This document shows, one piece after another, positions 32,845 to 38,328 of a stretch of DNA of 54,587 nt; position 1 is the stretch's first letter; each line of letters begins with the position of its first letter. The notes below the pieces were generated by a model. That model saw only the letters and a program-made list of their open reading frames with translations, was not told the DNA's origin and searched no databases. Origin of the DNA: a virus; UHGV virus genome UHGV-0036483; one strand, 5' to 3'. The position numbers and the translations under genes were made by a program.

Positions 32845-35800
32845 ATGAGTAGCGGCGGCGGCAAAGCCAAAACACCAGTATTATTAAACGATAACCTGTA
32901 TCATAAACAGTTTTATCGTGTCTTAGATATTCTCAGTGAGGGTCCGATATACGGTCCGGTAAACCAGAAAGCGCCACTGAATGACGTGATGCTTAATGAC
33001 ACGCCTGTTACTGACGCAAACGGGAATACATCAATACCGGGGATTAGCATAGCCTGGCGCAACGGCACGGCTGACCAATCGCCGATTAATGGTTTCAATG
33101 CCATTGAGTCAACCGTTATTGTCAACGCAAAGGTAACTCACGACACGCCAATAATCAGGACTGTTTCAGATCCAAACGTTACCCGCGTCAGGTTGAATCT
33201 TGGTGTTGACGCTCTCGTCCAGTCAGATGAAAAGGGCAATCAATACAATACATCCGTCATGTTGATGGTTGATGTTAAACCGTCATCATCTTCTACGTGG
33301 TCGCAAATTAAAATTATTACCATCGGACCAGGTAAACAGAGTGGTGAGTATCTGGAAGCTCACGTTATTAACGCGCCGGATGAAAAACCGTTTGATATTC
33401 GCGTTCGTCGCGTAACACCAGACAGCAACGGCGATCTATTGCGGAATGATACGCGGTGGAGTAGTTACAGCGAGATAATTGACGATAATCTGTCTTATCC
33501 TCATACCGCTGTAGCTGGCGCGGTAATTGACCATGACCAGTACACTGATACGCCTACCCGCACCTATCATCTTCGCGGCTTGATTGTTGACGTGCCTGAT
33601 AACTACAACACAGAAACGCGCACATATTCGGGCTTATGGCTTGGTGGATTCAAAAAAGCGTACACCAATAACCCTGCGTGGATTTTCCGGTATCTGGTTA
33701 AAAACGAGCGCTTCGGGCTTGCTCGACATGCTGGTTACATTGATGTTGATGATGGTGCTTTGTATGTGCTTTCTCAATACTGCGATCAGTTGGTTGATGA
33801 TGGCTATGGTGGCCTTGAACCTCGCATGACGCTCAACGCCTACATTACGGAGCAAATGAGCGCCCGCGACCTACTGGATAACATTGCAGGTATGTTCCGT
33901 GGTATCGCGTTATGGGACGGGCAACGCCTTACCGTGATGATTGATGCACCACAGGATCCAATTGCCACCATCACAAACGCAAACGTCGTTGATGGCGCGT
34001 TTACTCGCTCAAGTCTTCCGCTTGCAGAGTGTTACAACTCCGTGATCGTATCATGGACTGACCCGGAAAACGGCTGGGAGCAATCAAAAGAATACGTGTC
34101 AGATGATGAACTAATCGCCCGCGATGGTTATAACGAAACCACGTTGGAGGCGTTCGGGTGCACGTCACGCGGGCAAGCGTACCGCGCTGGCAAATGGCTG
34201 ATAGAAACAGCAAAACGCGAGCCGTCTAAATTCACGTTTAAAATGGCCCGTGACGCAATTCACTTCACCCCTGGTGATATTATCGAGATACTCGACAATA
34301 ACCGCGCTGGCGCCCGTCTAGGCGGTCGTATCGTGGCAAACAATGGCAGGGTTATCACTGTCGATAAGGTTGATTCTGAATATATCACCCCTGGCGACAC
34401 CATTAGCCTGCTTGATAGTGACGGCAAATTTAAAAAACACCAGATCACCGGAGTTAGCGGAAACAAAATTACCCTTGCATCCGCCCCGGCGTGGATTCGT
34501 AACGGTACTGTATTTGCTGTGTCAACTAACGCGGCAAAACCCGTATTGTGTCGAATTATCAGTGTGGCAGAAACAGAAAATAACAGCGTGTACACGATCG
34601 AGGCATCACAGCATGACCCGCACAAACAGGCTGTAGTTGATAATGGCGCAATCTTTGAGGTCAACAACGACACGCTTAATCACTTCCGCGTGCCAAACAT
34701 TGAAAACCTGAAGGTGTTAAACATTGGATCTGAAACAGTTCAATGCCGCGCAACATGGGAAACACTGACGACAACTCATCGCCTGACCTTTGAAATCCGC
34801 GTATACAATTCAGCGGGGGCCGTAGTTAAAAGCTACGAAACTACTAATTACAGTTATGATTTTTATGGCATTGATGCGGGAACCTACTCATTAGGCATCC
34901 GTGGCAGAAATGACACTGGCATGAAGGGTGCTGAAAGTATTGTGGATCTGGTTATTGGTGCGCCAGCTGCCCCGGTAGGAGTTAACTGGGTTCCTGGTGT
35001 ATTTCAGGCTACAGTTTACCCGATCAGCAGAACAACGCTTACCACTGACACTAGTTATGAGTTTTATTTCTCAGGTGAAAATCAAATCACAGATCCGGCA
35101 TCGGTGACCACTAAGGCACAATACACCGGGCGTGGTTATCAGTGGACGTTTGGCGGCATGAATACGGGCCACACCTATTACGTTTACGTGCGCACGCGTA
35201 ATGCCTTTGGCGTGTCCGACTTCGTGGAGGCATCAGGCCAGCCGACAGAGAATTTTGATGAAATCAGTGACTACGTGATGAAGGATGTCATGGGGTCGGA
35301 ACAGTTCAATGAAATGATTGGTGACATCAAAGATCTAGGCGACCGCACCGATGTTATCGAAGGTGTTGCGGAAGAACTGAAAACAGCTACTGACAACCTC
35401 AAAACTACAACTGATAACCTTACGAACGTAACTGACGATTTAAGGACTGAAACAGACAACCTTACCAGCATAACCGACGATTTGAGGACCGAAACAGACA
35501 ACCTTACTAACATAACTGAAGATTTAAGGACTGACACTGACAACCTGATCACAGAAACGGGAACAATAAAAGCTGACACCGATACACTTAAAAAAGAAAC
35601 GGAAGATCTTTACAAAAAAGTTAAGGAAAACGCCGATGATATTGGTCAGCATGAGTCCAGGATTGACCTATTAGAAGTGTCCAGCGAAAAAGTTGGCGGC
35701 GAACTGGCGCAAGCAAAAGCAAGCCTGCAAAACGCGTCATTGGCGCTTATCAACAACTCGCTTGCACAGACAAACACGCGCGTTACCCTTACCGCCCAGT

Positions 35801-38328: not shown

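Follow-up and report, generated by a model that had tools for sequence, protein, structure and literature searches.

Background

In bacteriophage lambda, the central tail fibre protein gpJ contains an α-helical shaft of 53 residues (809-861), a three-helix bundle located between the FNIII-2 domain and the β-prism (PMC11101478). The C-terminal 350 residues of the corresponding T1 protein, gp33, were too flexible to resolve and have been modelled as an α/β fibre of ~370 Å (PMC11945409), and the central fibre of the F7 pyocin contains a trimeric coiled coil of 163 residues that converts to a β-prism on cell contact, a switch that is needed for killing and that is predicted in 21 of 24 phage central fibres (PMC12874032, a 2026 preprint). 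For the J proteins that mEpimmI phages encode, a 2025 report describes size differences, "repeats of different length (positions 950-1,475)", then a conserved stretch and a variable end (PMC11893012). Here we analyse the J gene of the virus genome UHGV-0036483, an E. coli phage, a stretch of 54,587 nucleotides (nt) to which we refer as the window. The gene is a single open reading frame (ORF) on the plus strand, identified from the ORF list and its translation, and encodes a protein of 1827 amino acids (aa), as a sequence-only reading of this DNA had stated. We consider it probable that the central part of this protein is a greatly lengthened version of the α-helical shaft of J-type central tail fibres, arranged as a three-stranded parallel bundle.

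Repeats in mEpimmI J proteins are already in print, and the gene belongs to a known kind of system. The passages retrieved from PMC11893012 contain no coiled-coil reading of the repeats, no 36-residue or 3.6 periodicity and no link to the lambda shaft, and a literature search on repeat number or fibre length in such fibres returned nothing closer than the papers cited here. What we add is the reading of the region as a giant α-helical shaft, built from heptads and from an 18/36-residue, 3.6-periodic bundle, together with a unit-level comparison of 14 genes, the finding that stalk length varies independently of the receptor-binding domain, and a link to fold switching.

Results and discussion

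Comparison of the J protein with lambda gpJ

The window protein matches lambda gpJ (8iyk_J) over residues 1-851 by phmmer (E 1.8e-182), and blastp against lambda J (J02459) aligns its residues 1-850 with lambda residues 1-857 (38.5% identity over 867 columns). The match resumes at window residues 1532-1703, aligned with lambda 841-1006, which leaves ~680 window residues without a lambda counterpart. The collinearity that the sequence-only reading had proposed for ~1000 aa is thus present in the N-terminal part but stops at ~aa 850. Five Pfam domains, all above their cut-offs, occur in the order known from lambda J: FNIII-A_GpJ (88-214), Phage-tail_3 (335-492), Ig_J (609-707), Ig_J_second (709-811) and Phage_Tail_Tip (PF09327, 1535-1682, E 2.9e-37). 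Between aa 811 and 1535 Pfam returned no domain above cut-off, and searching the stalk against Pfam and PHROGs gave nothing beyond coiled-coil look-alikes below threshold (DUF4806, SF-assemblin and tape measure proteins). The gene is a clear member of the lambda-type J family and of the mEpimmI J subgroup.

The two aligned segments overlap on lambda J (857 versus 841) at the place where lambda has its helical shaft, and the N-terminal ~45 residues of the window stalk align by blastp to the start of that shaft. This overlap rules out the insertion of a foreign segment, as does the presence of the same module in T1 and in pyocins. On sequence grounds, the window stalk is an expansion of the lambda shaft and not an insertion. 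The lambda shaft (8iyk, 8xck) occupies the same place between homologous flanks and is a three-helix bundle, but it is 53 residues long compared with ~690-750 in the window, and it has no internal repeats (0 units by the repeat hidden Markov model, HMM). What remains of the ~700-aa coiled-coil insertion suggested earlier is therefore ~680-750 additional residues, predicted to be helical and with coiled-coil periodicity, in a shaft that has been expanded rather than interrupted.

Anatomy of the stalk

The stalk consists of a proximal series of heptads followed by two modules, each made of a non-periodic element, block A, and an array of 36-aa repeats (Table 1). The heptads keep one continuous register over aa 807-946, with Leu at position d and mostly Thr at position a. 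Eleven of the 20 are xTDNLxx or xTDDLRT units, the TDNLxxx/TDDLRTE array spans aa 849-925, and the motif T[DE][DN]L occurs eight times at an exact spacing of 7 aa between aa 849 and 898. Tandem Repeats Finder (TRF) reports a 42-nt period with 3.3 copies at 35409-35546 (score 192). The 14-aa TDNL/TDDL repeats described in the sequence-only reading are thus real, each being two heptads (2 x 7 aa).

The duplication of a block of ~60 aa was likewise correctly recognized: a direct repeat of 188 nt links positions 35696-35883 and 36806-36993, 1110 nt apart, at 80% nt identity, and the two complete copies of block A are 82% identical in aa and 76% in nt. A Gly-Gly pair (aa 951-952) and a break in the AlphaFold2 (AF2) helices at aa 941-964 lie near the start of copy 1, and a second break, at aa 1342-1349, lies inside copy 2; block A is possibly a hinge or a docking site for side fibres.

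The long repeats have the consensus VNASISxLDxKTxASVxRLDQAIADETSARxxAISG, in which 12 positions are invariant; the consensus for the first array is VNASISxLDKKTDASVKRLDQAIADETSARxQAISG. The HMM detects nine canonical units (66-74 bits) and three degenerate ones (8-26 bits; aa 992-1013, 1019-1053 and 1362-1387), and the motif AIADE recurs at an exact 36-residue spacing nine times and then three times. The count of about nine made earlier therefore holds for units scoring at least 66 bits, to which the three degenerate copies have to be added, but the unit length is 36 aa and not ~40, and the nucleotide period is 108 nt instead of the proposed 120 bp; two families of direct repeats, D1 and D2, are spaced 108 nt apart in the first array. 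The interval that had been singled out, 35384-37230, corresponds to aa 847-1462 and runs from the heptads through the last canonical long repeat.

Table 1. Features of the J gene of UHGV-0036483 and of the region just past its stop codon
Feature	Position in window	Strand	Evidence
Gene for the J-type central tail fibre / tip attachment protein (1827 aa)	32845..38328	+	ORF, Pfam, phmmer
Hub and FNIII domains (aa 1-850), collinear with residues 1-857 of lambda J	32845..35394	+	blastp, Pfam
Proximal heptad coiled coil, aa 807-946, 20 heptads (predicted)	35263..35682	+	Heptad layout, fast Fourier transform (FFT), TRF, AF2
Block A copy 1, aa ~951-1017, ELAQAKASLQNASLALINNSLAQTNTRVTLTAQYKKGRTETKAEIDRIDNVIAEEKKATAE	35695..35895	+	Direct repeat; heads first repeat array
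First 36-aa (108-nt) array, aa 1018-1305, 1 degenerate and 7 canonical units	35896..36759	+	Motif spacing, HMM, FFT
Block A copy 2, aa ~1321-1387, after short linker	36805..37005	+	Direct repeat
Second array, 2 canonical 36-aa units, aa 1388-1459	37006..37221	+	HMM (74 and 68 bits), AF2
Distal helix, aa 1460-1497 (predicted)	37222..37335	+	AF2 helix to aa 1497; phmmer to 25vf_A
β-prism / central straight fibre domain, aa ~1503-1708, Phage_Tail_Tip	37351..37968	+	Pfam, AF2, Foldseek
Distal receptor-binding domain, last ~125 aa	37951..38325	+	blastp
Terminator-like hairpin (38333-38352) and T run just past J stop	38333..38362	+	Hairpin

Evidence for helical structure

The composition of the stalk differs sharply from that of the hub: its 690 residues (aa 846-1535) contain no Pro and six aromatics, compared with 28 Pro and 68 aromatics in 691 hub residues. 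An FFT of hydrophobicity over the heptads (aa 846-945) peaks at 3.52 residues with a power of 117, against a shuffle maximum of 43 +/- 12, and over the first array (aa 1018-1305) it peaks at 3.60 residues with a power of 232, against 50 +/- 11; there the tenth harmonic of the 36-residue repeat is by far the strongest. On a helical wheel with 100-degree steps, the large hydrophobics of the repeat (V1, I5, L8, V16, L19, I23 and I34) fall inside an 80-degree arc, T12 and the invariant E26/R30 pair lie within this hydrophobic stripe, and an Ala/Ser stripe runs alongside. The core positions of the 36-mer are spaced 4,3,4,4,3,4,4,3,4,3, that is 7+11+11+7, which places 10 core positions in 36 residues and gives a periodicity of 18/5 = 3.6 residues per turn. 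From coiled-coil geometry, such a periodicity is expected to yield an almost unsupercoiled bundle.

Structure prediction agrees with this periodicity. An AF2 run on the monomer without an alignment (aa 820-1560) gave helices at 821-940, 965-1341 and 1350-1559, with low confidence (predicted local distance difference test score, pLDDT, 62.6; predicted template modelling score, pTM, 0.21). A second monomer run, on aa 1352-1827 with an alignment of 40 sequences, gave a helix at 1353-1497, with a pLDDT of ~86-96 up to aa ~1481 that declines towards its C-terminal end, and a β meander from aa 1503; the canonical units at aa 1388-1459 are helical with block-mean pLDDT values of ~95-96. The best Foldseek matches of this model are the lambda gpJ713 central fibre structures 8xcj, 8xck and 8xci. 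The two runs differ only at aa 1503-1559, which are helical in the first and form strands in the second. A search of solved structures with the repeat sequence returned only T1 gp33, in which the repeat part is unresolved, and chance-level matches to M protein, spike and SMC proteins. We reject a globular or β-structured stalk because of the absence of Pro, the 3.5 and 3.6 periodicities and the AF2 helices.

A proposed long trimeric stalk

J homologues have three-fold symmetry in all solved tips, namely those of lambda (8iyk), T1 (9l9p) and the F2 pyocin (25vf) (PMC11101478, PMC11945409), and domains that are three-fold there flank the stalk on both sides. This makes a long stalk of three chains the natural reading, with the parallel arrangement of the chains proposed by analogy with these tips. 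An exhaustive search with a profile of the 36-mer, which found 53 matches at E <= 0.001 among 1.84 billion representative proteins, offers independent support for a trimer: one of the best matches is a trimeric autotransporter with a YadA anchor (P0083), which has ~14 copies of EVSRLDTAISDEKTKREQ beside the anchor and matches the 36-mer profile with an E of 1e-19. Its 18-residue repeat, VSRLDTAIxDExxxR, corresponds to half of the 36-mer, and stalks of this kind are obligate parallel trimers that set length and vary in repeat number. P0083 is a bacterial surface protein and not a phage protein, however, and the likeness is probably convergent or restricted to a shared short motif, with transfer between phage fibres and adhesins as an alternative.

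In the arrangement that we propose, three J chains would leave the tail-tip cone past the FNIII domains and run parallel as a helical bundle, first through ~20 left-handed supercoiled heptads, then through block A and the 36-mers, a second such module and a short distal helix, before passing into the β-prism and the receptor-binding domain; the 36-mer section would be nearly straight. The stalk would serve as a spacer that fixes the reach of the receptor-binding tip from the tail mouth. Its length would be modular, with whole heptads or 36-residue units gained or lost while the helical register is kept, and would evolve independently of the receptor-binding domain attached to it. J is present in mEp021 virions by mass spectrometry (PMC11893012).

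The 751 residues from the end of FNIII-2 to the start of the prism, at ~0.148 nm each, would span ~110 nm if fully helical and straight, and the AF2 helices alone sum to ~97 nm; the resulting ~100 nm is an upper estimate. The length of a tail is commonly taken as ~0.15 nm per residue of its tape measure protein, which for the 782-aa protein of the window suggests a tail of ~117 nm. The tails of relatives measure ~130 nm by transmission electron microscopy (TEM) (PMC11893012). Because of these two values, the tip fibre could be nearly as long as the tail.

Several observations weigh against a stalk of this kind. Its composition is odd for a stable coiled coil (Leu 6%, β-branched residues 22%, Ser/Asn/Asp/Gly 32%), Gly occupies repeat position 36 in five of the nine units, and these glycines, the helix breaks and the non-periodic block A may divide it into separate segments. 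If so, it might be bent or folded back on itself and be far shorter than 100 nm. The structure models are of monomers only, and the single-sequence one has low confidence. The keyword-retrieved passages of the TEM report on the relatives (PMC11893012) mention no long tip fibre, and in a prophage whose gene seems intact, a stalk of only 318 aa serves with this receptor-binding domain. Both the physical length of the stalk and its function in reach are inferred.

Relation to other fibres of the family

In the mEpimmI phages mEp021, mEp044, mEp554, mEp010, mEp013 and mEp515, J contains the same heptads, block A and 36-aa repeats, and these phages share the gene order L-K-I-J with the window and 83-87% nt identity over shared parts. 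The combination of nine heptad motifs and 7+2 canonical units is the window's own. T1 gp33 (9l9p) has a block-A-like element and 3-4 IA(D/T)ETxAR repeats ahead of Phage_Tail_Tip, as in the window, but only ~3-4 repeats in a total of 1172 aa, and its hub belongs to a different sequence lineage. Block-A-like elements ahead of the repeats also occur in the T1-like J proteins P0039 and P0080. The latter (1922 aa) has three such elements and a stalk of ~870 aa, and is an independent large expansion of the same module. The repeat motif is found, in addition, in J-like proteins of Sphingomonas and Rhizorhabdus.

The central fibres of F-type pyocins have homologous hub and distal regions and, like the window protein, a coiled coil directly upstream of the prism, rich in Ala and β-branched residues; the pattern SxSxxMxxLxS, loosely defined, can also be matched in the window repeats. 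By phmmer, window aa 1379-1634 correspond to residues 914-1164 of the F2 pyocin protein (25vf_A, E 1.1e-26), the coiled-coil part included. The window stalk differs in being ~4.5 times longer than the F7 coiled coil, in being regularly repetitive and in its period (3.6 versus ~3.5). The spectrum of the F2 coiled coil, with the sequence taken from the alignment, has no significant 3.6 periodicity; the 18/36-residue regularity is therefore not general in that family.

Length variation and receptor-binding domains among relatives

We compared 14 J genes taken from phage and E. coli genome records, and stalk length was determined in the 13 that have both anchor motifs. Full-length relatives came from genome records, as a homologue search at the protein level gave proteins of at most ~1200 aa, mostly fragments. 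Among phages, the mEpimmI group and MagusPhagus are nearest to the window (83-87% nt identity). Of 5426 E. coli genomes that are complete, 35 have a related gene, with 94% identity in the best case. Across the set, the proteins are 1393-1935 aa long, the stalks span 318-859 aa, with 651 aa in mEp010, 450 aa in mEp013 and 439 aa in mEp515, and there are 1-12 canonical 36-aa units and one or two copies of block A. The number of repeats is thus not invariant, nor is the region predicted to be globular, and the core of the sequence-only reading survives. Relative to mEp044, the window stalk differs by +14, +36 and -72 aa, a net change of -22 aa made of whole heptads and 36-aa units; relative to the prophage of E. 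coli strain 127, it differs by +14 aa, in whole heptads.

Strain 127 carries the receptor-binding domain of the window protein (its last 125 aa) with 100% identity, on a stalk of 737 aa as against 751 aa in the window. In STEC308, a domain that is 93% identical (92.8%) is attached to a 318-aa stalk with one canonical unit. Conversely, mEp044 and mEp021 have the same 773-aa stalk, and their receptors are LamB and OmpA, respectively (PMC11893012). Because the same domain occurs on stalks of 318, 737 and 751 aa, and the same 773-aa stalk on ends that bind LamB or OmpA, stalk length and receptor specificity assort independently.

By blastp, the window's receptor-binding domain is not matched in any of the remaining 12 J proteins of the set (lambda and 11 relatives). 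It occurs in none of the six characterised mEp phages and is common to the prophages of E. coli 127 and STEC308. The domain has, moreover, ~42% aa identity to the C-terminus of a protein of rV5-like myophages (Vequintavirinae; FFH2, APECc02, PDX and others) described as a tail fibre or "J", a similarity that suggests an exchange of receptor-binding modules between sipho- and myophages.

Many of the protein homologues are partial and start or stop inside the repeat zone (P0001, P0004, P0007, P0008 and P0011-P0017). Short-read assemblies break in this zone, and J lengths from draft genomes are therefore unreliable; J genes of the mEpimmI-type group are often truncated in databases.

Evolution of the repeats and alternative explanations

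One explanation of the variation in repeat number would be a hypervariable contingency locus, in which the nucleotide repeats slip or recombine often and populations carry many fibre lengths. It draws on the variation in repeat number between related phages and prophages and on the many partial homologues that end in the repeat zone, where assemblers struggle, but the DNA makes it very unlikely. The 108-nt units are only 53-75% identical (mean 63%), with 75-80% identity at codon positions 1 and 2 and 35% at position 3, exact repeats in the stalk DNA are nowhere longer than 26 nt, and no pair of units within a gene exceeds 89% identity in any of 13 genes (75% in the window), which also rules out a recent tandem amplification. 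The ready expansion and contraction by recombination of nucleotide repeats that had been envisaged for this gene thus has weak footing, although the expansion and contraction themselves are seen in the 1-12 canonical units of the 14 genes. Orthologous units in different phages are 80-99% identical and so closer to each other than paralogous units within a gene, from which it follows that the units are old and individually conserved, and the strain 127 prophage keeps the same 7+2 arrangement at 94% overall identity. For some window units, the closest counterpart lies in a relative's other array, a sign that units have been shuffled. Given that the repeats are old and diverged, the pattern resembles modular recombination that is rare and in register, both between diverged units and between phages, over evolutionary time, not frequent slippage, with co-infecting phages or prophages as the probable partners. 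That the region is a passive expansion, neutral to selection, or an artefact of assembly, and has no function in itself, would be in keeping with the almost threefold range of stalk lengths on one receptor-binding domain, which implies that no single length is needed. We regard this as highly improbable: the frame is open through 5.5 kb; 12 of the 36 positions of the repeat never vary, whereas synonymous sites are close to random, a sign of purifying selection on the protein; the register is kept in every length difference resolved by unit; and the architecture recurs in complete, independently assembled genomes and in the separate T1-like J lineage of P0080.

A different question is whether the helical stalk is a permanent spacer or a loaded spring, that is, a metastable coiled coil, formed by part or all of the 36-residue repeat region, which refolds to β-prism on receptor binding at least in the distal part of the stalk, shortening the fibre by tens of nm, drawing the tail mouth to the outer membrane and opening the tip. 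Such refolding is compatible with a helical stalk in the free virion and differs in the purpose that it assigns to the repeats; we hold it to be possible but doubtful. There is precedent in the F7 pyocin and in the switches predicted for most phage central fibres, and in lambda itself shaft residues 841-861 turn to strands on LamB binding (PMC11101478). The distal stalk of the window protein lies in the region homologous to the F2 pyocin, with β strands starting right after the helix, and the stalk is close to that region in composition (Ala 18 versus 22%, β-branched residues 22 versus 21%). The helix-to-strand difference between the AF2 runs at aa 1503-1559 points in the same direction, and a receptor-binding tip ~100 nm away must somehow reach the membrane. 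The pattern SxSxxMxxLxS (PMC12874032) occurs twice per unit, forward in ARxxAIxGVNA and reversed in ASVKRLDQAIA, at spacings of 15 and 21 residues, and this alternating orientation is what an antiparallel meander would need; the invariant E26/R30 pair, four residues apart in the core stripe, fits the salt-bridge feature described in the same preprint. There are 19 hits to the pattern in aa 1018-1305, against 5.5 +/- 2.3 in shuffles, but these are copies of one unit and not independent, and the definition is loose enough to give ~0.7 hits per unit by chance. Further against refolding, AF2 with the 40-sequence alignment holds aa 1353-1497, two canonical repeats included, helical with very high confidence, and those repeats are helical in both runs; the F2 region lacks the 3.6 periodicity; and lambda and T5 undergo no extensive switch according to the preprint authors (PMC12874032).

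In its most far-reaching form, the whole 36-residue array (~430 residues per chain, up to 12 units) would be a giant fold switch of the F7-pyocin type, which we consider unlikely. Before adsorption, the virion would seek the receptor far from the tail with a straight stalk of three helices, ~60 nm long; after binding, the distal prism would seed an α-to-β conversion that zips up the stalk, with two strands per 36-residue unit and a rise of ~0.48 nm per strand, and the tail mouth would be reeled in by ~50 nm. The 18-residue half-repeat would then be either five helical turns or one strand and one turn. If true, a tail of the non-contractile type would in effect contract at its tip, and repeat number would set both reach and stored energy.

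Genomic context

The position of the gene is of the lambda type, after the tape measure gene (26284-28632) and the M, L, K and I homologues; ORFs 30920-31624, 31621-32358 and 32301-32831 correspond to L, K and I in the annotation of the relatives. The window has no gene between I and J (32831-32845), nor do the other relatives compared, apart from two: mEp021 has a 567-nt gene there, annotated as a putative HNH endonuclease, and mEp515 has an ORF of the same size annotated as hypothetical (5437-6003 in record L002 and 2937-3503 in record L006). Open frames of 93-171 aa run antisense to the repeat zone (35271-35579, 35646-35927 and 36171-36686, minus strand) and are most likely by-products of its repetitive, stop-poor composition, not genes.

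The gap between J and the following gene is just 113 nt (38329-38440) and holds the terminator-like hairpin; terminators are annotated at the equivalent place in mEp044, mEp554, mEp010, mEp013 and mEp021. Relatives with other receptor-binding domains have a minus-strand gene of ~249 nt downstream of J, which in mEp010 and MagusPhagus encodes a lipoprotein linked to superinfection exclusion; like the window, the prophages of strains 127 and STEC308 are without it. The next gene of the window (38441-42103) encodes a side tail fibre of 1220 aa with a C-terminal Peptidase_S74 intramolecular chaperone (aa 1092-1154), whose N-terminal ~235 aa are similar to the anchor domain in phage depolymerases of solved structure (7vyv, 7lzj; E 2e-35). 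By analogy with the F7 pyocin, this fibre could dock on the tail, or on block A or the acidic heptad zone of J. A gene for a tyrosine integrase (42441-43688; Arm-DNA-bind_3, Phage_int_M and Phage_integrase) follows immediately downstream of the fibre genes, and the element is therefore temperate. Compared with the linear records of the mEp phages, the gene order of the window is permuted.

Conclusions

An active question is how phages with long, non-contractile tails move the tail mouth to the membrane and power its opening. The group to which the window phage belongs forms a natural series of stalk lengths, from 318 to 859 residues and from 1 to 12 canonical units, in which some members have identical receptor-binding domains, and several members are cultured and have known receptors (LamB, OmpA). 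The series bears on how stalk length relates to fibre length, on how it affects adsorption rate or the tolerance of surface layers, and on whether the coiled coil refolds on binding.

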